Positions 5,561 through 29,180 of a stretch of 64,000 nt of DNA are shown here, piece by piece. The notes beneath the pieces were generated by a model that saw only the letters and a program-made list of their open reading frames with translations, searched no databases and had not been told where the DNA came from. Source of the DNA: a virus; the IMG/VR virus record IMGVR_UViG_3300017728_002360; one strand, 5' to 3'. Both the position numbers and the translations under genes were made by a program. Within the stretch, counting starts at the first letter, position 1, and every line of letters starts with the position of its first letter.

Positions 5561-5615
5561 GTCGGCCACAAGCGACAGTTTGGTATTTGTCAGCCTTAAA
5601 TGACATACAAAGGAG
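5561..5615 (+). promoter_or_regulatory. Twin-hairpin leader, candidate translational operator of the DNA polymerase gene
   Basis: GTCG-GCCACAAG-CGAC (5561-5576) and TGTCA-GCCTTAAA-TGACA (5588-5605) directly before AGGAG (5611-5615). Confidence 0.5.
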
Positions 5616-5620
5616 AATAA

Positions 5621-8302
5621 ATGAGCTACGTAGATGCACAATTCGATCGTGACCAAGACGTTATAAGAGTAGTAGAACGTAAAGAAGGTAAACGACATTT
5701 CACAGAATATCCTGTAAAGTACACTTTCTATTATAAAGATCAAAGAGGAAAGTATAAAAGTATTTACGGTGATCCCCTAAATAGAATAGTAGCTAGAAAT
5801 ACAAAGCAGTTTAGAAAAGAACTTGCTATAAATCAAAACAAAGAATTATTTGAGAGTGATGTCAATCCAATATTCCAATGCTTGAGTGAGCAATACTTAA
5901 ATGTAGATGCTCCTAAACTAAACGTTTGCTTTTTTGATATTGAGACTGACTTTGATCCAGAAAGAGGATTTGCTGATCCAAGCGATCCGTTTATGCCAAT
6001 AACTGCAATCACAGTACACTTACAATGGCTAGATAGTCTTGTAACATTTGCACTTCCTCCTAAGACACTTACAATGGAAGAAGCAAAAGAACAATGCAAA
6101 GAATTCCCTAATACATACTTGTATGAAAAAGAAGGTGATATGCTTGAAGCATTTCTTGATATCATACAAGACGCAGACATACTAACTGGTTGGAACAGTG
6201 AAGGTTATGATATTCCTTATACTGTAAACAGAGTGAAACGTGTATTGAGCAAAGATGACACAAGACGTTTTTGTTTATGGAAACAACTTCCTAAGAAACG
6301 TGAGTATGAGAAGTATGGTAAGAAGGCTGAAACCTATGACCTAATAGGTAGAGTGCATTTAGATAGTTTAGAATTATATCGTAAATACACATATGAAGAA
6401 CGACACACATATAGACTTGACGCTATTGGCGAACTTGAGATCGGTGAAAACAAAACTGTTTACGAAGGTACACTCGATCAACTTTATAACAATGACTTCA
6501 AGACATTCATTGAGTACAACAGACAAGACGTTGCACTACTGGACAAGCTGGACAAAAAACTAAGGTTTATTGATCTTAGTAATGAACTAGCTCATGCAAA
6601 TACTGTTTTGCTACAGACCACAATGGGTGCAGTAGCAGTTACAGAACAAGCAATTATTAATGAAGCACATCACAGAGGACTACAGGTTCCTAACAGGCCT
6701 AAACGTGACGAAGAAAATACTGCGGCGGCAGGTGCCTATGTTGCATTTCCTAAAAAAGGTTTACACAAATGGATAGGTTCAATGGACTTGAACAGTCTAT
6801 ATCCTAGTGTTATTCGTGCATTGAATATGGATCCTGCAACTATTGTAGGACAACTACGTCCTGAACATACAGAAGCATTCGTGCAAGATCAAATGACATT
6901 ACAGAAGAAGTCGTTTGCAGGTGCATGGGAAGGTAAGTTCGGTACACTAGAGTATGAAGCAGTTATGGAGAAAAGAAAAGACTTCAACATAACAGTAGAC
7001 TTTGAGAACGGCGATAGCGAGATGTTAAGTGCCGCGGAAGTTAACAAACTAATATTTGACAGCAACCAACCATGGATGCTAACTGCTAACGGTACTATAC
7101 TAACTAACGAACACGATGGTGTTATTCCAGGCTTGTTAAAACGTTGGTATAGCGAACGTAAAGAGCTTCAAGCTATGAAAGGAAAAGCCATTGACGCAGG
7201 TAATAAAACAGAAATTGCGTTTTGGGATAAACGTCAGCTTGTTAAAAAAATTAATCTTAACAGTTTATACGGTGCTATTCTTAACCCTGGTTGCAGGTTT
7301 TTTGATAAACGCATTGGCCAAAGTACTACACTTACTGGTCGTGCTATCGCAAAACACATGAGTGCAGAAGTTAATAAAGTTATTACAGGCACATATGATC
7401 ACGTAGGAGATAGTATTATATATGGTGATACTGACTCTGTGTACTTTAGTGCATTTCCAATACTAAAGAAAGAGATTGAAGCAGGACAGATTCCTTGGAC
7501 AAAAGATAGTGTTATTAAACTTTATGATCAAGTATGTGAAGAAGCAAACAAAACATTTCCTAAATTTATGATGGATGCTTTTCATTGTCCTAAGAGCAGA
7601 TCAGATGTTATTGCGGCAGGTAGAGAGATTGTTGCAGAAAGCGGATTGTATATTACAAAGAAACGTTATGCGGCTTTGATATATGACAACGAAGGACAAC
7701 GTATGGACGTGGAAGGTAAAGATGGTAAGGTTAAAGCTATGGGCTTAGATCTTAAACGTTCTGATACTCCTGTGTTTATGCAAGACTTTCTAAGCGAACT
7801 ACTAATGATGGTGTTACAAGAAACTCCTGAAAAAGAGATACTAGATCGTATTAGTGAATTTAGAACAGAATTTAAACTACGTCCTGGTTATGAAAAAGGT
7901 TCACCTAAACGTGCAAACAGGATTGGTGATTATCAACGTAAGGAACAACGTGAAGGTAAAGCAAATATGCCTGGACACGTAAGAGCAAGTATCAATTGGA
8001 ATACACTTAAACGTATGAACAACGACAAGTATTCGCAAGAGATTGTAGATGGAATGAAAGTTATTGTATGTAAACTAAAACAAAATCCATTAGGCTATAC
8101 AAGTGTTGCTTATCCTACAGATGAACTACGTATTCCTGAATGGTTCAAAGAACTTCCATTTGATGGAGATGCTATGGAGTCAACTATTATTGACAACAAG
8201 CTAGATAATTTAATTGGTGTGCTTAATTATGATGTTGCAAGTACACTACAAAAAAATACATTTAATAACCTATTTGACTTTGGAGGTGCAGATGAAAGCT
8301 AA
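5621..8302 (+). CDS. gp43: Family B DNA polymerase (T4 gp43-like)
   Basis: Exo motifs FFDIET, GWNSEGYDIPY, YNRQD; polymerase motifs DLNSLYPS, KINLNSLYG, YGDTDS, KKRY. Confidence 0.97.
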   Translation: MSYVDAQFDRDQDVIRVVERKEGKRHFTEYPVKYTFYYKDQRGKYKSIYGDPLNRIVARNTKQFRKELAINQNKELFESDVNPIFQCLSEQYLNVDAPKLNVCFFDIETDFDPERGFADPSDPFMPITAITVHLQWLDSLVTFALPPKTLTMEEAKEQCKEFPNTYLYEKEGDMLEAFLDIIQDADILTGWNSEGYDIPYTVNRVKRVLSKDDTRRFCLWKQLPKKREYEKYGKKAETYDLIGRVHLDSLELYRKYTYEERHTYRLDAIGELEIGENKTVYEGTLDQLYNNDFKTFIEYNRQDVALLDKLDKKLRFIDLSNELAHANTVLLQTTMGAVAVTEQAIINEAHHRGLQVPNRPKRDEENTAAAGAYVAFPKKGLHKWIGSMDLNSLYPSVIRALNMDPATIVGQLRPEHTEAFVQDQMTLQKKSFAGAWEGKFGTLEYEAVMEKRKDFNITVDFENGDSEMLSAAEVNKLIFDSNQPWMLTANGTILTNEHDGVIPGLLKRWYSERKELQAMKGKAIDAGNKTEIAFWDKRQLVKKINLNSLYGAILNPGCRFFDKRIGQSTTLTGRAIAKHMSAEVNKVITGTYDHVGDSIIYGDTDSVYFSAFPILKKEIEAGQIPWTKDSVIKLYDQVCEEANKTFPKFMMDAFHCPKSRSDVIAAGREIVAESGLYITKKRYAALIYDNEGQRMDVEGKDGKVKAMGLDLKRSDTPVFMQDFLSELLMMVLQETPEKEILDRISEFRTEFKLRPGYEKGSPKRANRIGDYQRKEQREGKANMPGHVRASINWNTLKRMNNDKYSQEIVDGMKVIVCKLKQNPLGYTSVAYPTDELRIPEWFKELPFDGDAMESTIIDNKLDNLIGVLNYDVASTLQKNTFNNLFDFGGADES

Positions 8303-8420
8303 AAGAAATAGACTTGAAAGAAAGCTGGACGAGTACAATCATATAATGGAACTAGTAAGAACCATTGTGCCGATTGCAGTTTTAGTAATACAAGTAATCA
8401 TCTTAATGAAGTTGGTATAA
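8292..8420 (+). CDS. Small protein with C-terminal hydrophobic helix
   Basis: GGAGG RBS then ATG 8292; 42 aa. Confidence 0.5.
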   Translation: MKAKRNRLERKLDEYNHIMELVRTIVPIAVLVIQVIILMKLV

Positions 8421-8421
8421 T

Positions 8422-8964
8422 ATGGCTGTACATGGAATGATAGACTTAGAGACACTAGGCGTTGAGCCAGATAGTGTTATCATCACCGTAGGTGCTATTA
8501 AGTTTGATCCATACACCGACGTTGAGCCTCATAGTGGTTTATATTTACGTTGTGACATTGAAGAACAGTCTGAAGAACTAGGTAGAACAATAGACGATAA
8601 CACAATGGAATGGTGGACTAAACAACCACAAAACATTCAGGACGAAGCATTTGGAGAACATAAAGACAGAGTTGATATGGATCAACTTACAAAAGCTCTA
8701 AATAAGTTCTGTGTAGGTGTTGATCAATTATGGTGCCAAGGACCATTGTTTGATTATGCTATACTACAAAACTTGTATAAGAATGTTGGCAAACCTTGTC
8801 CGTGGAACTTCTGGCAGATTAGAGACAGTAGAACTGTGTTTAGTATGATGCCAAGTGATCCACGTAAAGCAATACAAGAAGAAATGCACAATGCACTTGC
8901 TGACTGTTACTACCAAGCAAAATGTATTCAATCAACCTTCAAACACTTTGGAGTTAAAAAATGA
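8422..8964 (+). CDS. DEDDh 3'-5' exonuclease (DexA/ExoVIII-like)
   Basis: MIDLETLG, W.QG..FD, RDSRT, HNALADCYYQ. Confidence 0.88.
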   Translation: MAVHGMIDLETLGVEPDSVIITVGAIKFDPYTDVEPHSGLYLRCDIEEQSEELGRTIDDNTMEWWTKQPQNIQDEAFGEHKDRVDMDQLTKALNKFCVGVDQLWCQGPLFDYAILQNLYKNVGKPCPWNFWQIRDSRTVFSMMPSDPRKAIQEEMHNALADCYYQAKCIQSTFKHFGVKK

Positions 8965-9161
8965 AGTACAAAGCAAAGAGTAATATACTAAAGAAAGGTA
9001 ACGATAGTATTTCCTTTAGTGTAAACAGACGTAAGAAAGTTGCACACATAGGTTATTATTATGAATACGATAAACACAAAGAAGATGTCATTTGTAGTCT
9101 ACCGGACGCAGATGATAGATATGAAAGTGCCATCAAGGCAGGATATAAGGTAGCATTTTGA
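8961..9161 (+). CDS. Hypothetical protein
   Basis: 66 aa with overlapping start and stop on both sides. Confidence 0.5.
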   Translation: MKYKAKSNILKKGNDSISFSVNRRKKVAHIGYYYEYDKHKEDVICSLPDADDRYESAIKAGYKVAF

Positions 9162-9889
9162 AAATATTATTAACAGGAAGTAAGGGGTTTTTAGGTAGCC
9201 ACCTTGTCAAAAAATTGACGGCTCATCAGGTACATTGTATCGATAGAGCTGATGGCAAAGACTTACTTACCTGTGATTTAAACTATGACGTTGATCTAGT
9301 AATACATCTAGCAGGTGAAAGTGGTATAGCTAAAAGTTTAGACCACCCAGAACTGTATTGGGAAAACAATGTTATAGCAACAAAAAGATTATTTGATCAT
9401 TTCAAAGGCACAAAGATTATGTATGCAAGTTCTAGTACTGCAAAAGAACCAAACAGAAATCCTTATGCTATGACAAAATACACATTAGAAAAACTTGCAC
9501 CACATACAAGTACAGGACTACGTTTTTGCACTATATACAGTAACAGTCAGCAAAGGCCTAATATGTTCGTACCTCGTTTACTACGGAAAGAAATAGAGTA
9601 TATTCATACTAATCATAAACGAGACTTTATCCATATAGATGATGTTTGTAGTGCCATTACGTTTCTTATGAATCGTGAAGCACACGGTGTATATGATATT
9701 GGAACGGGTATAAGCACACCCCTAAAAGAGATTACGGATTTTTTCGATATAAACGTTGAAGAAAAGATCGGTGGTGAAAACGAAAGGTTATGCAATAAAG
9801 CTGACATTTCGAAATTAACAGACTTTGGTTGGAAACCTCAAATTAAATTATTTGAGTACTTAAAGTCGCAAAAGGACTTGACTTTATGA
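9158..9889 (+). CDS. NAD-dependent epimerase/dehydratase (extended SDR)
   Basis: TGSKGFLG, HLAG, YASSS, YxxxK (YAMTK), RDFIHIDD. Confidence 0.88.
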   Translation: MKILLTGSKGFLGSHLVKKLTAHQVHCIDRADGKDLLTCDLNYDVDLVIHLAGESGIAKSLDHPELYWENNVIATKRLFDHFKGTKIMYASSSTAKEPNRNPYAMTKYTLEKLAPHTSTGLRFCTIYSNSQQRPNMFVPRLLRKEIEYIHTNHKRDFIHIDDVCSAITFLMNREAHGVYDIGTGISTPLKEITDFFDINVEEKIGGENERLCNKADISKLTDFGWKPQIKLFEYLKSQKDLTL

Positions 9890-9906
9890 CAAAAGTTATG
9901 TACAAT
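9878..9906 (+). promoter_or_regulatory. Sigma70-type promoter for the clamp-transglycosylase operon
   Basis: TTGACT-17 nt-TACAAT upstream of GGAG and ATG 9927. Confidence 0.6.
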
Positions 9907-9926
9907 ATAACAATGGAGAAAAATCA

Positions 9927-10658
9927 ATGAAAGATATCTTACAAGACGTGGTTGCACATACACACTCGCTAGGTTTTCTTAATCTAGTAAAGGTTACGGG
10001 AGATGATGCAAATACACAAATCGAAAGTATGGCAGAAGACAGAAGTGTTATTCTAACTGCTGATACTAAAAATCCTGTGACAGAGTTCGCGGCAACCTTT
10101 GGTATGCCTAACTTAGATAAACTGGCTTTACACTTAAAGAATCCAGAGTATCAAAAGAACGCAAAACTTTCTGTAGAGAAAGCAACTAGGAACGGAGCAG
10201 AAGTTCCGACACACATTCACTTTGAGAATGAAGCAGGTGACTTCCAGAATGATTATAGATTTATGAATCAGGAGATCATTAATGAGAAACTTAAAAGTGT
10301 TAAGTTTAAAGGTGCTAGTTGGGAAGTAGAATTAGAGCCAACTATTGCAAGTATTACAAGAATGAAATTGCAAAGTGCGGCACACACAGAAGAAACTGTG
10401 TTTACTGTTAAAACTGAGAATAACAATCTTGTGTTTTACTTTGGTGATCATAGTACACACGCAGGATCATTTGATTTTGCAAAAGGTATTACAGGTGAAC
10501 TTAAACACGCATGGAGTTGGCCGGTAGCACAGGTACAATCAATTCTAGGACTAGATGGAAAACTTACAATGAAGATTTCCGATCAAGGTGCTATGCAAAT
10601 TAGTGTTGATAGCGGAATGGGTGTATACAATTACATTTTGCCTGCACAATCTAAGTAG
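9927..10658 (+). CDS. Putative DNA polymerase sliding clamp (gp45-like)
   Basis: 243 aa, the size and beta-rich two-domain pattern of a clamp, ending in YNYILPA; close to the polymerase. Confidence 0.65.
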   Translation: MKDILQDVVAHTHSLGFLNLVKVTGDDANTQIESMAEDRSVILTADTKNPVTEFAATFGMPNLDKLALHLKNPEYQKNAKLSVEKATRNGAEVPTHIHFENEAGDFQNDYRFMNQEIINEKLKSVKFKGASWEVELEPTIASITRMKLQSAAHTEETVFTVKTENNNLVFYFGDHSTHAGSFDFAKGITGELKHAWSWPVAQVQSILGLDGKLTMKISDQGAMQISVDSGMGVYNYILPAQSK

Positions 10659-10667
10659 GAGAAGTGA

Positions 10668-12212
10668 GTGAATACGAATCTAACTAATGCACAAAAAGAC
10701 TACGCAGTATTTCTCCCTGCCATTAGTGGGTTCTTTGCAACGTTTGTAGGCAAACAACGTTATGAGGAATATGTTGAGAAAAGTAGAATACCAAAGAACT
10801 TTCCGACTGAAGTAGAAAGCATGAACTGGCTTGAACCTAAAGCTAGTATGTTTCAATATCACTGGAGTTTATATTCGGCAGGACACGCCGAGTTAGATGT
10901 AAACAAAGACTCGCCTAAAGAGGATATGATCCGTAATAGAGATCGTAACAACAGTTGGTTGTTAGGAGACTCAGGTGGTTTCCAAATAGGTAAGGGTGTA
11001 TGGGAAGGTGACTGGAAAGATCCTAATTGTCCTAAAGCTAAAAAGAAACGTGAACAAGTCCTTACGTGGATGGACGCATATATGGATTATGGTATGATAC
11101 TTGATATTCCTGCCTGGGTGTCAAGAAGCCCTGCTGGTGCAAAAGCAACGGGTATTGACAACTATCAGGATGCCGTAAACGCCACTCGTATTAACAACGA
11201 TTACTTTATGAAAAACCGTAATGGTAATTGTAAGTTCCTAAATGTATTACAAGGTGAAAATCATACAGATGCTGAAGATTGGTATCAGCAAATGAAAGAC
11301 TACTGTGATCCTAAGAAATATACAGATCACTTTAATGGTTGGTCCATGGGTGGCCAGAATATGTGTGATATTCATTTAGTATTAAAAAGATTAGTAGCAC
11401 TACGTTTTGATGGTTTACTAGAAAAAGGAAAGCATGACTTTATGCACTTCCTAGGTACAAGTAAACTAGAGTGGGCTACTTTATTAACCGATGTACAACG
11501 AGCAGTTCGTAAATACCATAACGAAAACTATACTGTAACGTTTGATTGTGCAAGTCCTTTCTTAGCAACTGCTAACGGACAACTGTACATTCAAACAGAA
11601 ACAAATGATAGAACTAAATGGGTTTATAGAATGGTTCCAAGTATTGATGATAAGAAGTATTCAAGCGATACTAGAAACTTCCGTGACGCAGTATTGGCAG
11701 ATGGCATCTTTAAAAACTTTACAGACAGTCCGATAACAAAAGGATTAACTGTTAAAGATATTTGCATCTATGCTCCAGGAGACCTAAATAAGATAGGTAA
11801 AGAAGGTAAGACTAGTTGGGATAGCTTTAGTTATGCTATTCAGATGGGTCATAACGTATGGAGTCATATTAATGCAGTACAAGAAGCTAATAGATGCTAC
11901 GACAACGGTATATATCCTAGTATGCTAGTACAGGAGAAGTTCGATAGATTATACTTTAGAGATGTTATAGATGCCATTTTTGCAACTGATGACAGAGATA
12001 AAGCAAATCAAATTGTCGAAGAGTTCTCAAGATTCTGGATGTCAATCATTGGCACTAGAGGGGCAACTGGTAAGAAGACTGTAAATGCACAAACACATTT
12101 TAACGCATTGTTTGATGACGCAGATAGCACACCGGTTGTTGAAGAAACAAACGTTGAAGATTTACAGGAAAGTAAATTGGAGGAGTTAGAACATGAGCAA
12201 CAAAGCAAGTAA
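10668..12212 (+). CDS. dpdA: TGT-fold base-exchange transglycosylase, DpdA-like (7-deazaguanine insertion into DNA)
   Basis: TGT motifs GDSGGFQ, MILDIP, NVLQG, HFLG, TFDCASP, HN. The tRNA-TGT CxCxxC zinc site is absent. Context includes folE, queE and a QueD-like gene. Confidence 0.75.
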   Translation: MNTNLTNAQKDYAVFLPAISGFFATFVGKQRYEEYVEKSRIPKNFPTEVESMNWLEPKASMFQYHWSLYSAGHAELDVNKDSPKEDMIRNRDRNNSWLLGDSGGFQIGKGVWEGDWKDPNCPKAKKKREQVLTWMDAYMDYGMILDIPAWVSRSPAGAKATGIDNYQDAVNATRINNDYFMKNRNGNCKFLNVLQGENHTDAEDWYQQMKDYCDPKKYTDHFNGWSMGGQNMCDIHLVLKRLVALRFDGLLEKGKHDFMHFLGTSKLEWATLLTDVQRAVRKYHNENYTVTFDCASPFLATANGQLYIQTETNDRTKWVYRMVPSIDDKKYSSDTRNFRDAVLADGIFKNFTDSPITKGLTVKDICIYAPGDLNKIGKEGKTSWDSFSYAIQMGHNVWSHINAVQEANRCYDNGIYPSMLVQEKFDRLYFRDVIDAIFATDDRDKANQIVEEFSRFWMSIIGTRGATGKKTVNAQTHFNALFDDADSTPVVEETNVEDLQESKLEELEHEQQSK

Positions 12213-12378
12213 GAGTGAAAAGAAACTACAAGAAGAACACAAATGGTATGACAAGATCACAGGATCACTTACGAAGGAACGTAAGTTTGATAGGTCTTGG
12301 CAAACAGAAGAGCTTTTAAAAAGAACTAAAAAAATTAAATTAGCAATCAAAGATAAGATAGAAAATACTAAAAAATGA
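12193..12378 (+). CDS. Small coiled-coil hypothetical protein
   Basis: 61 aa, GGAGG RBS, K..KLAIKDKI. Confidence 0.55.
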   Translation: MSNKASKSEKKLQEEHKWYDKITGSLTKERKFDRSWQTEELLKRTKKIKLAIKDKIENTKK

Positions 12379-12959
12379 ACGCAACTGCACTATTTTCAAC
12401 TTTATTATTAGAGGAACATCTTGATTTAGATAACGAGTCTGTTAAACAGGCTTGTTATGATATCCAACAAGACAATCCACATAATGAACAAGAAGGTGGT
12501 TGGCAGAGCGATTGGCTTTTAGATGATGATAGATTTAACAGTCTTAAACACGCAGTCGATGATATGGCTAAGAAAGTGCAAGAAGAATACTATAATCTTA
12601 ATTGTACTATAGAAAGAAAAGCTGAATGGATAAACATTAACTATCCGCAAGGTGCAGAAACTAATATCAATCAAGTTCATATGCACGATAGAAATGTTTT
12701 AAGTTTTGTTTACTATGTACAAGCAGATAATGATTGTGGTAACCTAACTTTGTTTGCACCACATCAGCTATATGATTATGCAGTTCCGTATAGATATATT
12801 AAACAACCTAATGAATGGAATAGCACTAGGTTTAGAATACAACCACAAGCAGGCAAGTTGGTTTGTTTTCCAAGTTACTTGTTACATAATGCTAATGCAA
12901 ACAAAAGCAAAAGAGATAGGATTAGTATTGCATTTAACGGAGACATAAATGAAACGTGA
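12375..12959 (+). CDS. 2OG-Fe(II) oxygenase-like protein (TIGR02466-type)
   Basis: GGWQS, WININ, HMH, LSFVYY, FPSYLLH, RISIAFN. Confidence 0.8.
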   Translation: MNATALFSTLLLEEHLDLDNESVKQACYDIQQDNPHNEQEGGWQSDWLLDDDRFNSLKHAVDDMAKKVQEEYYNLNCTIERKAEWININYPQGAETNINQVHMHDRNVLSFVYYVQADNDCGNLTLFAPHQLYDYAVPYRYIKQPNEWNSTRFRIQPQAGKLVCFPSYLLHNANANKSKRDRISIAFNGDINET

Positions 12960-13503
12960 TTACACAGACGGCGAACAAGATAACGTAACGTTGTTTACTG
13001 GTGTTGAAGTAGAACATACTCCTGCATACGGACAAAGGACTTTGTTTGTAGTAGGAATACATAATCCAATTGACTTGATGCAAAAAGCAAGAGAACAAGA
13101 CTGTACACACATTTACTTAGGTGCTAATCAAAGTTTTAATCCTGATCCAAAGAATACAGATAACATAGAAGACTGGCATGATATGATTAGTGTTCTTTTA
13201 GACGAGAATTGGTTAGTTACACTAGACTATGATGTTAAGTATCATGAACTTGTATTAGATAACTTACACGAATCTAGTCAACCATTTTCTACAGTGAACA
13301 GTAATTTTATTCCGCAGATCAGTGTTAAGATTCCAAACATATCTGAATTAAGCTATAATGCTTGTATTAAGATTGACGACACTGACTTTAACCATTCGAA
13401 CCCAGGTGTATGGGTTCATCAAGTACACGACTTAATGGATCGTTCAAAATTTACAGATTGGACACAATATACCAAAGACAAACCAATAAAAGAGGTTGAT
13501 TAA
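12949..13503 (+). CDS. Hypothetical protein within the deazaguanine cluster
   Basis: 184 aa; FTGVEVEHTP..G.RTLFV, HIYLGANQSF, KIDD.DF..SNPGVW, FTDW..Y; function unknown. Confidence 0.7.
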   Translation: MKRDYTDGEQDNVTLFTGVEVEHTPAYGQRTLFVVGIHNPIDLMQKAREQDCTHIYLGANQSFNPDPKNTDNIEDWHDMISVLLDENWLVTLDYDVKYHELVLDNLHESSQPFSTVNSNFIPQISVKIPNISELSYNACIKIDDTDFNHSNPGVWVHQVHDLMDRSKFTDWTQYTKDKPIKEVD

Positions 13504-13507
13504 TACT

Positions 13508-13981
13508 ATGGATGATGTTACAATAAAAGAACTTAAACATTTGTCTACAGACGAGTTTATTAGGCAAAAATACAAAGAGGAAGGCAAAGCAAAGACTATG
13601 GATAATGCAAAGAGAATGATTTGGGTTACTTTTAGAAAAGAAGGTATTCACAAATATCCTGCGGCACTTGACGATCCTAAACTTGCAACAGGCGACGAGT
13701 ATGATGTTTCATTTTTAGGCTACCCACACAGACATATTTTTCATTTTAAAGTTGCTATTGAAGTATTCCACGATGACAGAGATATTGAATTTATTCAGTT
13801 CAAACGTTGGTTGGAAAAAATGTATAGCGAAAAGACTTTAGAACTTGATTATAAATCTTGCGAAATGATCAGTGATGATTTATGGGCTAAGATTAATGAA
13901 AAGTATCCAGGAAGAGAAGTTCACATTGACGTAAGTGAAGATGGAGAGAATGGTGCTCACATCGTATACGCAAAATACTAG
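13508..13981 (+). CDS. dpdL: QueD/PTPS-like T-fold protein with LxxxHRHxF motif (DpdL-like)
   Basis: EGIH, FLGYPHRHIF, SCEM, VSEDGENG. It lacks the QueD CxxxHGH cysteine. The DpdL signature is recalled from the literature and not searched. Confidence 0.65.
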   Translation: MDDVTIKELKHLSTDEFIRQKYKEEGKAKTMDNAKRMIWVTFRKEGIHKYPAALDDPKLATGDEYDVSFLGYPHRHIFHFKVAIEVFHDDRDIEFIQFKRWLEKMYSEKTLELDYKSCEMISDDLWAKINEKYPGREVHIDVSEDGENGAHIVYAKY

Positions 13982-16155: not shown

Positions 16156-17320
16156 AGTAACAGAAATGCTAGATGGAAGAATGTACATCTTTGATGATGC
16201 ATTTGAGCCACCTGAACTAAATGAACTTGTTCGTGATGTACAAAACTGGCCATACTTATATGGTGAAGTTGATGACGGTGATTTACCGCCAACAGGAATG
16301 AGTACAGGAGAATATACAGGTAGTAAAACATTTCATGCACTTTGGGAGTTCTGTGAAAAGTATGTACCACAAGTAAATGGTTGCATACTAAAAAGATCAC
16401 ACGCAAATATATTTGCTCCAAGAGAGCCTGCGTACTATCACGTAGACGATGAAAGTGATGAAGCATGGACTTTTATGTTTTATGCAAACAATAACTGGGA
16501 TATAAATGACGGTGGTGAAACAAAGTTTATTACCAACTTACAAAATAAAAAAGAAGGCTATGAAGGTACAGAGTATCCAGAGATAATTGCTATTCCGCCT
16601 ATTCCAGGTAGAATACTTCTTTGGAAAAGCAACGTATTACATACTGCAACACCTATGAGAAACACACATAGATTTACTCCTACGTTTAAATTTATTAAGT
16701 TCTTAGAAGAAATGCACGGCAAAGGTGAAGGTGGTATTGTTATGGGTAAGCAAGAAACTTATCCTTGGCATAAAGAATATGTTCCACCTATGCCTATTAC
16801 AACTGAATTACATAACATAGTAAACATTAATGTATATGAAACTAACTTGACTAACGTAGACGATAAACAAATAATAGATTGTGTTAGTAGACGTGTTACA
16901 AGGATTGATAATAATCCTGAGGACACACACTACGAAGATTTTGAGTTTCCAAACAATCCGTGTTGTTTACACTTTATGAGTGAAGTAGAAAAAGCAGTTA
17001 AGCAATACACAGATGAAGATTTAGAATTAACAGGAATCTGGACACACAAAACAGAACCAAATGGTAGTACTGCCTTTCATAGTCATACTAAAAGCAAATG
17101 GTCTTTTGTGTATTACCCAGCACACGTGGAAGGCCAAGGTAACTTACACTTCACAGTATTTGTAAATGATATGCCACGTTTCGAAAAAGAGATACAACCT
17201 AAGCCGGGTATGCTCTTAATATTTGATTCAAAGATTTCTCACTACACAGGGAAAAATGTAACAAACAGTGATAGGTATTCTATCAGTGGTAACTTTAATA
17301 TTAGGAGTAATAATGATTAA
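16142..17320 (+). CDS. Tandem two-domain 2OG-Fe(II) oxygenase
   Basis: Domain 1: YHVD, W...GGET, H, R. Domain 2: FHSH, WSFVYYP, H, RYSISGN. Confidence 0.8.
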   Translation: MRQPKVTEMLDGRMYIFDDAFEPPELNELVRDVQNWPYLYGEVDDGDLPPTGMSTGEYTGSKTFHALWEFCEKYVPQVNGCILKRSHANIFAPREPAYYHVDDESDEAWTFMFYANNNWDINDGGETKFITNLQNKKEGYEGTEYPEIIAIPPIPGRILLWKSNVLHTATPMRNTHRFTPTFKFIKFLEEMHGKGEGGIVMGKQETYPWHKEYVPPMPITTELHNIVNINVYETNLTNVDDKQIIDCVSRRVTRIDNNPEDTHYEDFEFPNNPCCLHFMSEVEKAVKQYTDEDLELTGIWTHKTEPNGSTAFHSHTKSKWSFVYYPAHVEGQGNLHFTVFVNDMPRFEKEIQPKPGMLLIFDSKISHYTGKNVTNSDRYSISGNFNIRSNND

Positions 17321-17855
17321 GAAAAAATATTATAGTTGGAAAGACGTGGAGAATATGTGTACAAGTATCGTAAGCGATATGTACAATGACTCTTGGAGAC
17401 CCGACTATATTGTAGGTATTACCAGAGGTGGTAATGTACCAGCAACTATTATTAGTAACATGACTGGCATACGTTGTGAGTCTATTAAGATTAGTCTACG
17501 TGATAACGAATCAGGTAGAGCAGGTGATAGTGTTGACTGGATGGCCGATGATGCTTTTGGTATTCTAGATGGCAAGGTTGCATCAGGTAGCCCAACTAGT
17601 AAGAAAATTTTAATCGTAGATGACATCAACGACACTGGTGCTACATTTAACTGGATTAAAAAAGATTGGGAGTCAAGACACAATGACCCAGACAAGTGGG
17701 CTAGGATATGGGGTGGCAATGTTAAATTTGCTACACTTACAGAAAACCTAGCTAGTAAGTTTGGATCTGTTTCTTACTTCTGTGACGAAGTTAACAAAGC
17801 TGAGGAAGACGTTTGGTTAGTTTATCCTTGGGAGAACGTGGGAAAGTATGATTAA
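17313..17855 (+). CDS. Type I phosphoribosyltransferase (purine PRTase-like)
   Basis: IVGITRGG, ILIVDDINDTGAT PRPP-binding motif, WLVYPWE; AGGAG RBS before ATG 17313. Confidence 0.88.
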   Translation: MIKKKYYSWKDVENMCTSIVSDMYNDSWRPDYIVGITRGGNVPATIISNMTGIRCESIKISLRDNESGRAGDSVDWMADDAFGILDGKVASGSPTSKKILIVDDINDTGATFNWIKKDWESRHNDPDKWARIWGGNVKFATLTENLASKFGSVSYFCDEVNKAEEDVWLVYPWENVGKYD

Positions 17856-18549: not shown

Positions 18550-18788
18550 CCGATAATATAGTTAAATTTCCTGATATAAAAGATAGGGTACACGTATTAA
18601 ACTTTAAAGTGCCAGCGGTTATCAGTATGCACAAAAAAGCAGATAGCGATATAGCATTGGAAATAAGACGTTTGAATGAACACGAAGGTATAGGACAAGC
18701 CTGGGTACCTGCAAAGAATATAACAGAAGCTAAAAGGAAACTACACGATATGATCAAAGTTACTGAATGGATTGACATAGATGCGTGA
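18546..18788 (+). CDS. Hypothetical protein
   Basis: 80 aa, ATGA-coupled. Confidence 0.55.
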   Translation: MTDNIVKFPDIKDRVHVLNFKVPAVISMHKKADSDIALEIRRLNEHEGIGQAWVPAKNITEAKRKLHDMIKVTEWIDIDA

Positions 18789-19176
18789 AGACTTAATGGT
18801 TCAACAACAGGTAGAAAACTTATGGCAACACTTTGTAGGTGTTATATGTTTAAATCAAACAGGTAGAATACAAGTTAAAAGAGTACTACCAGAGTTTTTT
18901 GATAGATGGCCAACGCCAGAGAAGTTTCTTAGAAGCAGAAAAGCAACTGTTATTAACGTAATAAAAAGTTTAGGATTTTATAATAGACGTGAGAACGCAA
19001 TTAGAAAGATGACAAAAGACTTTCTAACTTGGGATAAGGTAGATGCTACAAAGTTATATGGCATCGGCAAATACGGATCAGATAGTTACGAGTTATTCTA
19101 TAACAAACGTGTACCTGAGAACGTAGGTGATCATGAATTAAAAAGATACATTAAGGAAGAGTTTTATGGAGTTTAG
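18781..19176 (+). CDS. HhH DNA glycosylase, MBD4-like
   Basis: W..FV..I.LNQT, WPTPE, LGFYN.R, HhH LYGIGKYGSDSY, D-H..L..Y aligning to the MBD4 catalytic Asp region. Confidence 0.8.
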   Translation: MREDLMVQQQVENLWQHFVGVICLNQTGRIQVKRVLPEFFDRWPTPEKFLRSRKATVINVIKSLGFYNRRENAIRKMTKDFLTWDKVDATKLYGIGKYGSDSYELFYNKRVPENVGDHELKRYIKEEFYGV

Positions 19177-19588
19177 TCAAATACCTTGGAAAGACGTGTT
19201 AGTAGACACTAGACAATTTACTGTGTTTAAGGACAAGTATCCGGTTACAGAAGGACATATTCTTTTTGTACCTAAAGTAGAAGACTGGGATCATTTGACA
19301 GAATGTTTTAAGGCCGCTTACAAATGGGGCTATGATTGGGTTGAACGTGGATACTGTGATGCTTTTAACATAGGACAGAACGTAGGCAAAGAAGCAGGAC
19401 AAAGTGTAATGTGGCCACACGTACATTTGATTCCTAGGCGTGAAGGTGATATGGCAGATCCTAAAGGAGGTGTGCGAGGAGTGTTGCCACATAAGCAAAA
19501 ATATATAGATAAGGATCTAAATATACGTGAAGGTAAATTTACAACAGAAGAAATTATTGAAGCACAAGAGAGGATCTTAAATAAATGA
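19166..19588 (+). CDS. HIT family nucleotide hydrolase
   Basis: DKYPVTEGHILFVPK, FNIGQNVGKEAGQSV, WPHVHLIPR. Confidence 0.88.
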   Translation: MEFSQIPWKDVLVDTRQFTVFKDKYPVTEGHILFVPKVEDWDHLTECFKAAYKWGYDWVERGYCDAFNIGQNVGKEAGQSVMWPHVHLIPRREGDMADPKGGVRGVLPHKQKYIDKDLNIREGKFTTEEIIEAQERILNK

Positions 19589-20742: not shown

Positions 20743-21429
20743 TTGAAGAAAAGTGAAGAAATAATACAGAGGTTACAAGACTCAGGAGATAGATTCTGGG
20801 CTGGTGACAACATATCACAGCATCTACAACCGGGCGACAAAGATGCACTAATCGAAGAACTTACACCAAAGTTTGAAGAAGTGTTAGACAGCTTGGTTAT
20901 AGATCGTTTTAATGATCCTAACAGTATGGACACTGGTAGACGTCTTGCAAAGATGTATATCAATGAACTTATGCAAGGACGTTATAACCCAATGCCTAAT
21001 GCAACTGCATTTCCGAACCATGTAGAAGATGGTTATAAGGGTATGCTTGTTGTAAGAAGCGAAATTAAAAGTATGTGTTCACATCATCACCAACCAGTGA
21101 GTGGTGTTGCATACATTGGTATTATTGCCGCGGAAACACTCATTGGACTTTCTAAGTATACACGTATTGCTCAATGGTGTGCAAGAAGAGGTACACTACA
21201 AGAAGAACTTAATAATGTTATTGCTAATGAGATTGGTAAGGCAACTAACAGTCCTAACGTAGGTGTTTACATTCAAGCAACACATGGTTGTTGTGAGAAC
21301 AGAGGTATTATGGCAAGAAGTAGTTTAACACAAACTACAGTCTTACGTGGTGCATTTGAAAAAGACATGGGTACTAAAAAAGAGTTTATGGATAACATCA
21401 AATTACAACAGGAGTTTGCACGTGATTAG
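20743..21429 (+). CDS. folE: GTP cyclohydrolase I
   Basis: SMCSHHHQP, IGLSKYTR, LQE, ATHGCCENRG, TQTT..RG.F; TTG start. Confidence 0.95.
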   Translation: MKKSEEIIQRLQDSGDRFWAGDNISQHLQPGDKDALIEELTPKFEEVLDSLVIDRFNDPNSMDTGRRLAKMYINELMQGRYNPMPNATAFPNHVEDGYKGMLVVRSEIKSMCSHHHQPVSGVAYIGIIAAETLIGLSKYTRIAQWCARRGTLQEELNNVIANEIGKATNSPNVGVYIQATHGCCENRGIMARSSLTQTTVLRGAFEKDMGTKKEFMDNIKLQQEFARD

Positions 21430-22191: not shown

Positions 22192-23088
22192 ATGGCAGAG
22201 AAGAAATATTATTACAGTGAAATATTTCATTCGATACAGGGTGAAGGACACTATACAGGTGTGCCTACTGCTTGGATACGTTTCTTCTTGTGTAACTTAC
22301 AATGTAGTGGGTTTGGACAAGTAGATCCTACAAATCCTGACACATATGATCTTCCGTTTTTAGATTATGATGTAAGCCAAGTAAAAAGAGTTGAAGACTT
22401 ACCTGTTTGGGAAAAAGGTTGTGATTCTAGTTATACTTGGGCTAAGAAGTATAAACACTTGATGGGTCAAGAAACTCCTGATTCTTTAGCAAACAAGATT
22501 GTTGATATACTAAAGACAGAGTCGAACCCAGAAGGCAAGTTCTTACATCCTATGAGTAAGCAAAGACAACACTTATGCTTTACAGGTGGTGAGCCTTTAA
22601 TGATTACTGGACAACAGGCAAGTGTTGGTATATATGAAGAATTATTAAAACAAGGTAATTTACCAGAGTCAATGACTTTTGAAACTAACGGTACACAAAA
22701 GTTAAGAGAGCCTTTTAAAGAATGGGCTACAGGAATTGATCAAGAAGTATTCTTTAGTTGTAGTCCTAAACTGTTTACAGTATCAGGTGAACAAACTAAG
22801 AAAGCTATTATTCCAGAAGTAGTTGGAGAATATTATCAAGTTTCTAACAAAGGACAATTAAAGTTTGTTGTAGGTAGTGAACAAAGACAATGGGACGAGA
22901 TGGACGAAGCTATAGAGAAATTTAGATCAGCAGGTTGTAATTGGCCTGTATGGATCATGCCCGTTGGGGCTAGAGAAGAAGAGCAAACTGCGACAGCAGG
23001 TGACGTTGCTAAACTGGCATTTCAAAGAGGTTATAACGTGGCGGCAAGAGTACACGTATACTTGTTTGGTAATGCGATAGGCACTTAG
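22192..23088 (+). CDS. queE: 7-carboxy-7-deazaguanine synthase (radical SAM)
   Basis: SEIFHSIQGEG..TGVP..WIRF, CNLQC...GCDS with a long insertion before the third Cys, TGGEP, ETNGT, SPKL, RVH..LFGN. Confidence 0.88.
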   Translation: MAEKKYYYSEIFHSIQGEGHYTGVPTAWIRFFLCNLQCSGFGQVDPTNPDTYDLPFLDYDVSQVKRVEDLPVWEKGCDSSYTWAKKYKHLMGQETPDSLANKIVDILKTESNPEGKFLHPMSKQRQHLCFTGGEPLMITGQQASVGIYEELLKQGNLPESMTFETNGTQKLREPFKEWATGIDQEVFFSCSPKLFTVSGEQTKKAIIPEVVGEYYQVSNKGQLKFVVGSEQRQWDEMDEAIEKFRSAGCNWPVWIMPVGAREEEQTATAGDVAKLAFQRGYNVAARVHVYLFGNAIGT

Positions 23089-26665: not shown

Positions 26666-27760
26666 ATGGAAAACATCGCAATAAGACAAGTTAGTCCAAA
26701 TGGTGCAAAGAAAAGCATTGTTAGGGCATTCAAGAAACAAAGACCTATTTTTATTTGGGGACCTCCAGGTATTGGTAAGTCAGACATTGTATCACAGATT
26801 ACAGATACATTTGATAATTCACACTTAATTGATATTAGATTGAGTTTATGGGAACCTACAGATATTAAAGGTATGCCATATTATTCAGCTAATGATAATA
26901 CAATGAAATGGGCACCGCCTATTGAATTGCCAGACGCAAAGATGGCTAAGAAATATAAGACCATTGTTTTGTTCTTAGACGAAATGAATTCTGCGGCACC
27001 TAGTGTACAAGCCGCGGCATACCAACTAATTCTTAACAGACGTGTTGGTACTTATAAATTACCCGATAATGTTATGATTGTTGCCGCTGGTAACAGAGAA
27101 GCAGATAAGGGTGTAACTTACAGAATGCCTGCTCCATTGTCAAACAGGTTTGTTCACTTAGAAATTAAAGTGGACTTTGATGACTGGTTTGCTTGGGCAG
27201 TTGCTAACGACATCCATAAAGATGTTGTAGGTTACTTGACATTTGCAAAGAAAGACTTATATGACTTTGATCCTAAGAGCCCAAGTCGTTCATTTGCAAC
27301 ACCTCGTTCGTGGTCATTTGTTTCCGATTTATTGGAAGACGATGACGATGAAGCAACCACTACAGATCTTGTAAGTGGTTCAGTCGGCGAAGGACTAGCC
27401 GTTAAATTTATGGCACACAGAAAAGTGTCAGCTCACTTACCTAACCCAAGTGATATACTTGTTGGTAAGGTAAAAACAATGGAGACTAAAGAAATCAGTG
27501 CCATGTATTCCTTGACTGTCTCTCTTTGTTACGAGTTGAAAGAAGCGATTGATAAGAGCGATAAGAAGTTTGACGATAAAGTCAATAACTTTTTACGTTT
27601 TGCGATGGATAACTTTGATACCGAATTGGTTGTCATGGGTATTAAACTTGCTCTTACTCAATATCAACTTCCAATCGATCCAGATGAAGTTGAGTGCTTT
27701 GATGAGTTCCATGAAAGATACGGCAAGTACATTAAGGCCGCTCAAGGAGAAACTGCCTAA
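26666..27760 (+). CDS. MoxR-like AAA+ ATPase
   Basis: Walker A GPPGIGKS, Walker B LFLDE, AAGN, NRF, TPRSW. Confidence 0.9.
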   Translation: MENIAIRQVSPNGAKKSIVRAFKKQRPIFIWGPPGIGKSDIVSQITDTFDNSHLIDIRLSLWEPTDIKGMPYYSANDNTMKWAPPIELPDAKMAKKYKTIVLFLDEMNSAAPSVQAAAYQLILNRRVGTYKLPDNVMIVAAGNREADKGVTYRMPAPLSNRFVHLEIKVDFDDWFAWAVANDIHKDVVGYLTFAKKDLYDFDPKSPSRSFATPRSWSFVSDLLEDDDDEATTTDLVSGSVGEGLAVKFMAHRKVSAHLPNPSDILVGKVKTMETKEISAMYSLTVSLCYELKEAIDKSDKKFDDKVNNFLRFAMDNFDTELVVMGIKLALTQYQLPIDPDEVECFDEFHERYGKYIKAAQGETA

Positions 27761-27773
27761 TTTGGTAGTTTTA

Positions 27774-27807
27774 GGGGAGAATCTTTTTTGGTTCTCCCCA
27801 TCTTTTT
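27774..27807 (+). terminator. Rho-independent terminator
   Basis: GGGGAGAATC-TTTTTT-GGTTCTCCCC hairpin followed by ATCTTTTT. Confidence 0.7.
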
Positions 27808-27809
27808 GG

Positions 27810-27838
27810 TTGACAAATCCATTTAAATATACTATAAT
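27810..27838 (+). promoter_or_regulatory. Sigma70 consensus promoter
   Basis: TTGACA-17 nt-TATAAT. Confidence 0.8.
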
Positions 27839-27860
27839 ATACATATAACAATTAGGAAAG

Positions 27861-29180
27861 ATGGCACACATGACTAATATAGCAACAGATCAAGGGCAAG
27901 AAGTTTTAGACAGATGGGAAGAGATCAAGGAAAAAGCTGATCAACTTCCTGAGATTACTGACGAACTTAAAGCAGAAGTTTTAGATAAAATTATTGTAGC
28001 AAGAGTAGGCTTACTACTTAGACATCCATTCTTTGGTAACATGGCTACAAGACTTATTATTAAAGAAGCAAGTGATTGGTGTCCTACTGCGGCCACTGAT
28101 GGTAGACACTTGTTTTATAGTGTTCCTTTCTTTGCTAAGATGACTAACAAAGAAGTTGAGTTTGTTATTGCACACGAGATATTACATTGTGTATATGATC
28201 ATATGACACGTAGAGAAGATAGAGATCCGCAGGTACATAATATCGCGGCTGACTACATTGTTAACAATACACTTGTTAGAGATAACATTGGTGAAAAGCC
28301 TAAAGACATTCCAATTTTCCAAGACTTTAAATATGATGGTAAAACATCAGAAGAAATCTATGATGAGATTTATAACAAATATGATGAAGAAGAATTAAAA
28401 CAATTAGGTCAATTACTTGACGAGCATATTGATTGGGATAAAGATACCCAAGATGGTAATGCTCCTAGCAAAAAAGGTAAGGGTAAAAAAGCTGGTGACA
28501 AGCCTAGTTACTCTAAAGATGAATTACGTAAGATACGTGACGAGATCAAAGAGAATATGATGGCATCTGCACAGGCGGCTGGTGCTGGTAAAGTTCCTAA
28601 AGAAGTTGAAAGAATGATCAAGGAACTTACAGAGCCTAAGATTACTTGGAGAGAATTACTTAGACAACAAATACAAAGTACTATTAAGAATGATTACACA
28701 TTCCAAAGACCTTCACGTAAGGCTTGGCATAGTGGTGTAGTTCTTCCTGGTATGAACTATGATGAAACAATTGATATTGCTATTGCAATTGATATGTCAG
28801 GTTCTATTATGAACGAACAGGCACAGGACTTCTTAGGTGAAGTAAAAGGTATTATGGACGAGTATCAAGACTATAACATTAAACTATGGTGCTTTGATAC
28901 TAAGGTTTACAACGAGCAAGACTTTAGTCCTGACAATGGTCAAGACTTAATGAACTATGAAATCTTCGGTGGCGGTGGTACTGACTTCATGTGTAATTGG
29001 GAGTACATGAAAGAACAGGACATACAACCTAAAAGATTTATTATGTTTACAGATGGTTATCCTTGGGATAACTGGGGTGATGAAAACTATTGTGACACAA
29101 TATTTGTAATTCATTCACATCATGATAAAAACTTGCAGGCGCCTTTTGGTATTACAACTCATTATGAGGAGCAAAAATAA
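27861..29180 (+). CDS. Metallopeptidase-like plus vWA domain protein (DUF2201-type), partner of the MoxR ATPase
   Basis: TAATDG, HEILH (HExxH), MIDAS DMSGS, GGGGTDF, FTDG. Confidence 0.88.
   Translation: MAHMTNIATDQGQEVLDRWEEIKEKADQLPEITDELKAEVLDKIIVARVGLLLRHPFFGNMATRLIIKEASDWCPTAATDGRHLFYSVPFFAKMTNKEVEFVIAHEILHCVYDHMTRREDRDPQVHNIAADYIVNNTLVRDNIGEKPKDIPIFQDFKYDGKTSEEIYDEIYNKYDEEELKQLGQLLDEHIDWDKDTQDGNAPSKKGKGKKAGDKPSYSKDELRKIRDEIKENMMASAQAAGAGKVPKEVERMIKELTEPKITWRELLRQQIQSTIKNDYTFQRPSRKAWHSGVVLPGMNYDETIDIAIAIDMSGSIMNEQAQDFLGEVKGIMDEYQDYNIKLWCFDTKVYNEQDFSPDNGQDLMNYEIFGGGGTDFMCNWEYMKEQDIQPKRFIMFTDGYPWDNWGDENYCDTIFVIHSHHDKNLQAPFGITTHYEEQK

Follow-up and report, generated by a model that had tools for sequence, protein, structure and literature searches.

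A TGT-fold enzyme of an uncultured jumbo phage shares a tail peptide with the DNA polymerase and is a probable client of the phage sliding clamp

Introduction

Can an enzyme that exchanges bases in DNA be carried by the sliding clamp of a phage? This question is raised by a locus in the IMG/VR virus record IMGVR_UViG_3300017728_002360, of which a stretch of 64,000 nucleotides (the window) was analyzed. The source is an uncultured marine jumbo phage known only from metagenomes, with a G+C content of 32–38%, and a megablast search with positions 5600–12400 found no match in the phage collection. On the plus strand of the window, genes for a family B DNA polymerase, a putative sliding clamp and a 514-amino-acid enzyme with a predicted TGT fold lie close together, and both the polymerase and the enzyme carry a short hydrophobic peptide of the FxxLF type in the C-terminal part. 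A sequence-only reading of the window had proposed that the enzyme is a DpdA-like transglycosylase, which rides the clamp on this peptide and modifies nascent DNA processively at the fork. The modifications in question, 7-deazaguanines in DNA, protect phages from restriction and from some CRISPR nucleases.

Our analysis indicates that the enzyme is probably a DNA guanine transglycosylase of the TGT/DpdA superfamily, whose tail peptide docks on the phage's own PCNA-type clamp, making the enzyme a clamp client. Its tethering to the clamp is well supported computationally, because the predicted folds, the conservation of the motif, the lineage-wise likeness of the peptides, the gene linkage and a model of the complex agree; processive modification of nascent DNA at the fork is what we infer beyond that. 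Three alternative explanations, discussed below along with the evidence that bears on them, are less well supported.

Results and Discussion

The polymerase and the enzyme carry similar peptides

The polymerase gene (5621–8302, plus strand) encodes a family B DNA polymerase of 893 amino acids (Pfam DNA_pol_B, 1e-33; DNA_pol_B_exo1, 7e-20; phrog_262, 3e-196), which is 41–50% identical to the polymerases of Sinorhizobium phage Phosso, Agrobacterium phage Atu_ph07, Vibrio phage 2.275.O and jumbo phages of the 121Q type. Read directly, its C-terminus is ...KNTFNNLFDF followed by GGADES, the peptide FNNLFDF (residues 881–887; 8261–8281, plus strand) standing six residues before the stop, exactly where the sequence-only reading had placed it. 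Polymerases from the 80 close-clade loci in IMG/VR have kept the motif TFxxLFxF at the C-terminus, and related peptides are found at the extreme end of the polymerases of PA5oct, 2.275.O, Phosso, Atu_ph07 and four distant lineages (L087, L088, L102 and L103).

The candidate clamp-interacting peptide of the enzyme, singled out by conservation, tail enrichment and the complex model, is FNALFDD (residues 478–484; 12099–12119, plus strand). The longer string AQTHFNALFDD had been reported to start at 12090; the string is there, and its true start is 12087, a slip of three bases. The acidic tail reported behind it was found as well, since 30 mostly acidic residues follow FNALFDD. The peptide is preceded by a disordered linker (residues 465–477; 12060–12098, plus strand), which has a predicted local distance difference test score (pLDDT) below 50 and varies in sequence among distant homologs; in the AlphaFold2 (AF2) model of the enzyme monomer, residues 465–481 and 483–494 all have pLDDT below 50. 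A scan of the 225 mechanically called open reading frames (ORFs) of the window for F..LF[DEGT] finds this pattern in the polymerase, the enzyme and one antisense ORF and in no other. Its limitation to the polymerase and the enzyme among credible ORFs argues that the match between the two goes beyond chance.

Homologs of the enzyme were collected in a first search, which scored at least 7975 of them, and in an exhaustive one, which yielded 1001 representatives with at most 50% mutual identity by library clustering. The question of whether FxxLF is conserved among them can be answered in the affirmative. The motif [FY]xxLF is kept in all 120 closest homologs (77–94% identical). In an alignment of 47 sequences with identities as low as 33%, F482 never varies, conservation at F478 and L481 is 90% or higher, and the flanking positions are not conserved. 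In 85 diverged full-length representatives, the last 45 residues contain 18 instances of Fxx[LM]F and the other 37,108 residues four (4.7 versus 0.11 per 1000 residues, an approximately 44-fold enrichment in the tail), and 45 of the 85 tails have an [LM]F pair. At the level of sequence, these observations support the view that the tail peptide is a conserved short linear motif of the same type as the polymerase C-terminus.

The segment behind the motif (12120–12209, plus strand) is an acidic, facultative extension, with an amphipathic helix of the ESKLEELE type at its end. In 68 of the 120 close homologs the protein ends one to four residues after the motif (forms of 482–487 amino acids, which lack the extension), and in 51 an acidic extension of 25–46 residues follows. 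The AF2 model of the window enzyme has a helix at residues 501–513, with block-mean pLDDT of 79 (501–510) and 66 (511–514). This terminal element, an acidic stretch closed by an amphipathic helix of the form [DE]-x-K-L-E-x-L-E, is recognizable in PA5oct (L001:5995-7617) and in several relatives with 35–60% identity.

The enzyme has a predicted TGT fold

The catalytic body of the enzyme comprises residues 1–460 (10668–12047, plus strand) of the 514 encoded by the gene (10668–12212), and was identified with AF2, Foldseek, VIA-align and hhalign. The AF2 model, a TIM barrel of the TGT type, has pLDDT 91.6 and a predicted template modeling score (pTM) of 0.90. Compared with the Protein Data Bank (PDB) by Foldseek, it gives 192 matches at E <= 0.001 with probability 1.00, and the 50 matches listed are all to the TGT of Zymomonas mobilis. 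VIA-align superposes it on bacterial, archaeal and human TGT with Z of 18–19.4 over about 300 residues at a root-mean-square deviation of 4.1–5.0 A.

The catalytic residues are retained. In TGT, the catalytic aspartates lie in the motifs DSGGFQ and FDC, and the motifs LD, QG and GG form the base pocket. In an alignment of 98 sequences reaching 25% identity, D101, S102, G104, P148, H260, G263 and D293 are invariant, and D146, Q195/G196 and G224 are nearly so. The family profile matches Escherichia coli Tgt in hhalign (90% probability, E 1.5e-6), with GDSGGFQ, LD, QG, GG, LG and FDC aligned to the matching motifs of that protein. The canonical zinc motif CxCxxC is absent from the translation, and the 98 sequences contain no invariant or nearly invariant cysteine; lacking this motif, the enzyme is not a canonical tRNA TGT. 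Neither the enzyme nor 97 relatives match any Pfam family, including PF01702 (TGT), the enzyme has no PHROG match, and a profile search of PDB sequences gave nothing meaningful, so that the identity of the enzyme was revealed only by the fold comparison and by hhalign against E. coli Tgt.

By structure, the nearest named viral models in BFVD are the Motura TGT (E 4e-11) and DpdA2 of Vibrio phage nt-1 (E 1.8e-10), followed at a distance by DpdA3 of phiST (4e-3). Membership in DpdA3 was considered and rejected: hhalign with phiST CGPG_00065 gives 81.5% probability and E 1.1e-5 over just 86 columns, and DpdA3 has 259 amino acids as opposed to 514 and lacks DSGGFQ. Since the structural match to phiST DpdA3 is far weaker and the profile alignment so short, the modeled enzyme is best placed in a separate clade of DpdA-like enzymes, distinct from DpdA3. 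The earlier description of the enzyme as a DpdA-like transglycosylase therefore stands as far as the TGT fold and the catalytic motifs are concerned; the enzyme belongs to none of the named DpdA subfamilies tested.

Another clade of jumbo-phage proteins with a TGT domain, from GR7B, Pseudomonas putida phages and Xanthomonas phages, has a lysine-rich basic tail and not FxxLF (for example, L095:2608-4224 of Vibrio phage vB_VcorM_GR7B); this basic tail may be a different way to hold DNA. A search with the GR7B TGT-domain protein as the query found no match to nt-1.

A putative sliding clamp is encoded upstream of the enzyme

The gene at 9927–10658 (plus strand) encodes a two-domain protein of 243 amino acids. 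Its AF2 model (pLDDT 70.4, pTM 0.66) shows a doubled beta-alpha-beta-beta-beta pattern, and Foldseek finds at least 500 whole-chain matches in PDB at E <= 0.001; the 50 matches listed are all PCNA-type clamps, with the best E of 9e-11 and template modeling (TM) scores of 0.6–0.67. The PCNA-type fold predicted in this way bears out the earlier suggestion that 9927–10658 encodes a clamp. The protein belongs to no Pfam family, its sole PHROG is the unnamed phrog_12062, and a profile search of PDB sequences gave nothing meaningful. Some phage records label its homologs as PCNA or clamp, and in relatives the gene adjoins that of the polymerase. The distance from the polymerase gene to the clamp gene that follows it is 1.6 kb in the window and 0.1–0.4 kb in PA5oct, 2.275.O, Phosso, Atu_ph07, L087, L088, L102 and L103. 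On this modeled fold, we take the 243-residue protein to be the phage's own sliding clamp.

No clamp loader was identified within the window. The AAA+ gene at 26666–27760 was considered for this role and rejected, as the VWA/DUF2201 partner gene indicates a MoxR-type pair: the gene for the ATPase (AAA_5/AAA_3) precedes one for a DUF2201 protein that resembles metallopeptidases and has a VWA-like domain (26666–29180 for both), in the manner of MoxR–VWA pairs, within a region of replication and modification genes.

The enzyme is linked to the clamp and the polymerase across lineages

The clamp gene ends with the stop codon at 10656–10658 and the enzyme gene starts with GTG at 10668, which confirms the spacing of 9 nucleotides reported earlier; the GGAG-type ribosome site of the enzyme gene overlaps the clamp gene stop. 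The arrangement is not peculiar to the window. Of the 80 IMG/VR loci from the close clade, L034 is the only one in which the clamp gene is not immediately upstream of the enzyme gene on the same strand; the gap ranges from an overlap to 1.4 kb, and the enzyme tails carry the motif apart from a handful of degenerate variants. In the four distant motif-bearing lineages with sufficient sequence context (L087, L088, L102 and L103), the polymerase, the clamp and the enzyme are encoded in one run.

The peptides of the two proteins also resemble each other lineage by lineage. The polymerase ends in DLFDW and the enzyme peptide reads DLFGW in 2.275.O; the corresponding pairs are SLFGW and SLFDV in PA5oct, DLFDF and NLFDF in L087, KLFNY and SLFEF in L088, FFEF and LFEF in L102, and KMFTF and KLFDF in L103. 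In a pairing test over eight lineages, 17 identities were counted at six positions flanking LF; permuted pairings gave 9.9 on average and reached 17 in 378 of 40320 cases.

In the 349-kb genome of 2.275.O, the annotated genes ending with a polymerase-type peptide are only those of the polymerase, the TGT-like enzyme and one protein of 74 amino acids. A DNA-level search for the pattern LF[GD][WF]-stop in four complete relatives gave counts not above those of a reversed-pattern control. The 74-residue protein (NVP2275O_204; L097:1714-1938) ends in SSLFEW and contains a zinc-ribbon-like CxxC...C pattern. This protein is a candidate for a third client of the clamp and may be a factor similar to gp33.

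The family members without the motif whose surroundings could be determined are L091, L094 and L100, and their contigs contain neither polymerase nor clamp. Their neighbors are integrases, a ResIII helicase with an N6/N4 methyltransferase, regulators, QueE/PTPS genes and a Vut_1 (YhhQ-type) transporter; these islands look bacterial, and radical SAM proteins are also found among the neighbors. The motif-less members may belong to a cellular Dpd-like restriction-modification system. The contigs of P0309, P0331, P0360 and P0362, too short or without available sequence, do not bear on the presence of a clamp.

These data bear on the possibility that the tail serves the enzyme itself: it could fold back on the active site or the DNA face, mediate dimerization or, jointly with the acidic extension, mimic DNA, and the resemblance to the polymerase end would then be convergent or coincidental. 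TGT enzymes are indeed dimers (PMC6884629), the acidic extension with its conserved helix resembles an autoregulatory or partner-binding element, and the motif is internal in the window enzyme. Nevertheless, the very low confidence of the motif in the monomer model suggests that it does not pack on the enzyme body; it persists without the acidic extension, tracks the polymerase end lineage by lineage and is missing from family members outside phage replication modules. We therefore consider a purely intramolecular role highly improbable.

The polymerase gene itself is interrupted in some relatives: by a homing endonuclease gene in PA5oct (L001:1-4831) and by an intein in L088 (L088:4955-9154), and in Atu_ph07 it consists of two ORFs (L005:3001-5970). 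In all three the last piece retains the C-terminal peptide. The 272-kb phage contig of L088 also harbors, close to the replication module, a Cas12f1/TnpB-like gene (L088:13616-14971).

Modeling places the enzyme peptide in the clamp pocket

The complex was modeled from the clamp alignment and the enzyme tail (residues 455–514). The score of the complex is 0.86, the median of three runs (0.73, 0.86 and 0.86), and the best of three controls scored 0.02; in a benchmark that is rough, since our own alignments were used, the score of the complex was reached by 58 of 80 solved complexes and by 2 of 110 mismatched pairs. At least 72% of the contacts are common to the runs, and the partner has a pLDDT of at least 47. 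The modeled interface comprises residues 471–478 and 480–486 of the tail and residues 38–42, 123–130 (the interdomain connector), 197–199, 220–222 and 237–243 (the C-terminus) of the clamp. The lowest expected errors belong to F478, L481 and F482, which sit in the canonical peptide pocket of PCNA and gp45. Modeling the clamp with the tail peptide, one part of the check that the sequence-only reading had proposed (the clamp trimer with each peptide), yields the canonical pocket and a score far above the best control. In the clamp alignment of the close clade, 16 of the 25 interface columns and 84 of the 218 other columns are invariant (hand count). Since complexes of PCNA and gp45 with peptides have already been solved and could be remembered by the predictor, the model speaks for likeness and not for binding.

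The shared peptide could in principle dock on another hub of the replisome: the clamp loader, the single-strand-binding protein, the helicase-primase or the beta clamp of the host. The comparative data reveal a common conserved peptide and not its partner, which is named by analogy with T4 and RB69 and by one model; moreover, the motifs that bind bacterial beta clamps also end in LF, and many enzyme tails read Q-x-x-x-L-F. On the other hand, Q and LF are spaced differently than in the five-residue beta-clamp motif, and the enzyme gene stays beside the phage clamp gene in nearly all lineages. The model seats F478, L481 and F482 in the canonical pocket and assigns them a low expected error, while the control in which the clamp was replaced scored 0.02; besides, polymerases are known to bind clamps through C-terminal peptides of this type (PMC6212786). 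Docking to a hub other than the phage clamp is accordingly quite unlikely.

The gene context fits a DNA 7-deazaguanine system

Several genes of the window belong, or are similar to those belonging, to the 7-deazaguanine pathway. GTP cyclohydrolase I (FolE), which catalyzes the first step of 7-deazaguanine synthesis, is encoded at 20743–21429 (plus strand; Pfam GTP_cyclohydroI, 1.7e-37), a QueE-like radical SAM enzyme at 22192–23088 (plus strand; phrog_2076, 4e-52) and a DpdL-like T-fold protein at 13496–13981 (plus strand; phrog_17812), two genes downstream of the enzyme. In TBLASTN, the DpdL-like protein finds phiST CGPG_00067 at 1e-9 and the PA5oct and Phosso neighbors at 1e-39 to 1e-51.

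In PA5oct and 2.275.O, the genes of the enzyme homologs adjoin those for QueE, QueF, QueC and GCH1, and in all, QueE, QueF, QueC, GCH1 or PTPS genes stand beside homologs in PA5oct, 2.275.O, L087, L091, L092 and L103. The DNA of PA5oct, whose homolog is 33% identical to the window enzyme, resists cleavage at restriction sites containing G, is targeted by modification-dependent nucleases and behaves as G-modified (PMC12191111); a system for deazaguanine synthesis and incorporation has already been listed for PA5oct by Iyer et al. (PMC7824862). The gene content of the window fits a DNA 7-deazaguanine system, in which DNA would be the substrate of the enzyme and a 7-deazaguanine the probable inserted base.

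The genes of the locus are arranged on the plus strand as follows: the polymerase is followed by an Rv2179c-type exonuclease (8422–8964), a small ORF, an NAD-dependent epimerase (9158–9889), the clamp, the enzyme and a 2-oxoglutarate-Fe(II) oxygenase. A promoter-like site, TTGACT-17-TACAAT, lies just before the clamp gene (9878–9906, plus strand). With 10 of 12 consensus positions it ties for the best match in the scanned stretch, and it is a candidate only. Promoter-like sites are not enriched in this stretch (17 versus 14.1 +/- 3.4 in shuffled sequences). Of the earlier claim that the clamp and the enzyme stand behind one sigma70 promoter, the presence of the site holds; as such sites are no more common than in shuffled sequences, the claim itself is merely plausible.

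Other genes recur in the vicinity. A gene with a phosphoribosyltransferase domain is found near the TGT-like gene in the window (17268–17855) and in three distant lineages (L092:2846-3301, L103:7981-8430 and the P0309 contig), and because of this recurrence it may belong to the modification pathway. In distant lineages (L087:9232-12326; L103:3639-4937), the TGT-like gene is flanked by genes of sugar metabolism, which encode phosphomannomutase, mannose-1-phosphate guanylyltransferase/isomerase and inositol-1-phosphate synthase. Between the modification genes and FolE, the window also contains a short gene similar to HhH-GPD base-excision glycosylases and a HIT-family hydrolase gene (18781–19588).

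Proposed mechanism and its significance

In the mechanism that we propose, a 7-deazaguanine-type base would be made by the FolE, QueE and DpdL-like enzymes of the phage and inserted by the TGT-fold enzyme. The FxxLF peptide in the disordered tail would dock on the clamp at a hydrophobic pocket that lies below the interdomain connector and next to the clamp C-terminus, giving the enzyme the status of a clamp client such as the polymerase, the ligase and gp33 have on gp45 in T4. The tether to clamps on freshly copied DNA would raise the local concentration of the enzyme and keep it on phage DNA; the tethered enzyme could slide along the duplex or scan it, and base exchange would be coupled to replication in time and place.

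Docking could also be real and serve a different purpose: confinement to phage DNA, timing, recruitment to repair or recombination, or a competition between clients that regulates replication or late transcription. The present tests are silent on processivity and on the fork, clamps have many clients, which in T4 include transcription factors (PMC6212786), and the 74-residue protein of 2.275.O ending in SLFEW suggests a wider clientele. This explanation is in no conflict with the data, differing from the proposed mechanism only in the consequence of tethering. Still, an enzyme of the TGT type flips and exchanges bases singly, so a tether to a sliding ring would be the simplest benefit, and we regard a different purpose as unlikely.

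Several points weigh against the clamp-tethered transglycosylase. The complex model may reflect a memorized geometry of PCNA with peptides, docking being a modeled result. In the alignment of eight distant clamp sequences, the pocket residues are not enriched among the invariant columns (2 of 25 interface columns versus 15 of 218 others, hand count). The pairing test comprises just eight hand-aligned peptides. The motif of the window enzyme lacks the final aromatic residue of the polymerase (FDD versus FDF) and is internal, not terminal; a few close relatives have degenerate versions (NRNY, YANF and NKHF), and the Phosso enzyme, whose gene is far from the clamp gene, retains GLF alone at its end. 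For the window phage, both the DNA substrate and the modified base are deduced from context. Insertion of the DpdA type has been published as post-replicative, with no stated link to the replisome (PMC10516641). Finally, T4 alpha-glucosyltransferase was proposed to bind gp45 and to glucosylate DNA during replication, and this interaction was not reproduced in vitro or in vivo (bioRxiv 10.64898/2025.12.06.692756).

A clamp-docking peptide on the enzymes of this abundant clade offers a concrete, testable mechanism of coupling base exchange to replication. If the mechanism is true, phage sliding clamps have a new class of client, and a polymerase-type peptide on a non-replicative enzyme can serve as a sequence marker of replisome-coupled DNA-modification enzymes. 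Among the relatives with homologs of the enzyme, PA5oct and Vibrio phage 2.275.O are in culture. A broader picture, which we put forward tentatively and as possible rather than probable, is that the sliding clamp is a platform for DNA hypermodification in very abundant marine and soil jumbo phages: the transglycosylase would scan the duplex behind the replisome, the replacement of guanine would be efficient and limited to phage DNA, and a second element, the acidic helix at the end of many tails, would recruit a further partner, e.g. the tailoring enzymes (oxygenase, glycosyltransferase) encoded directly downstream. On this picture it would be clear how base exchange after replication can cover a genome of 300 kb in a single infection cycle.

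Comparison with known systems

The proposed arrangement resembles that of the gp45 clients of T4 and RB69. In T4, the polymerase gp43 and DNA ligase share the peptide LDFLF, whose copy in the ligase lies in an internal flexible loop and has been crystallized on gp45, and the same binding to gp45 has been inferred for gp33 from its sequence (PMC6212786). Common to both cases is the use of a single short hydrophobic peptide, LDFLF in T4 and FxxLF in the window, by the polymerase as well as by other enzymes. The peptide is located in a flexible part of the protein, either at the end or within the chain, and its site is a hydrophobic pocket on the outside of a PCNA-like trimeric clamp, as predicted by the model in our case, where the contacts involve the interdomain connector and the clamp C-terminus. 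Unlike the gp45 clients described with the T4 ligase (PMC6212786), the client in the window is a base-exchanging DNA-modification enzyme; the window clamp and polymerase are similar to those of T4 in sequence at the family level only, and the binding in the window is modeled.

The DpdA proteins compared were bacterial DpdA, DpdA1, DpdA2 of Vibrio phage nt-1, DpdA3 of phiST and CP220, and DpdA4 (PMC6884629, PMC10516641, PMC10164549). The enzyme shares with them the TGT fold, the retained catalytic aspartates and the linkage to FolE, QueE and DpdL-type genes; it differs from them by having no match to Pfam TGT or to a PHROG and no CxCxxC, and by the clamp-type tail peptide, which the DpdA papers do not mention. 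The efficiencies of DpdA modification vary from less than 0.1% to 100% of guanines, a spread that is unexplained (PMC10516641). In full-text searches of the literature on DpdA-type enzymes or deazaguanine, no paper was found that links them to a clamp; the sequence-only reading, too, had named no earlier description of such a link for Dpd systems.

In eukaryotes, the maintenance methyltransferase DNMT1 and the uracil-DNA glycosylase UNG2 bind PCNA through PCNA-interacting peptide (PIP) boxes. The likeness consists in the recruitment of a DNA-modifying or base-flipping enzyme to new DNA by a short clamp-binding peptide; the enzyme class, the chemistry and the domain of life are different, and no evolutionary relation is implied. 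The idea put forward for T4 alpha-glucosyltransferase is similar in that a DNA-hypermodifying enzyme of a phage would be coupled to the replisome via the clamp. In that case, however, no peptide shared with the polymerase was reported, whereas in the window the shared and conserved peptide is the main evidence.

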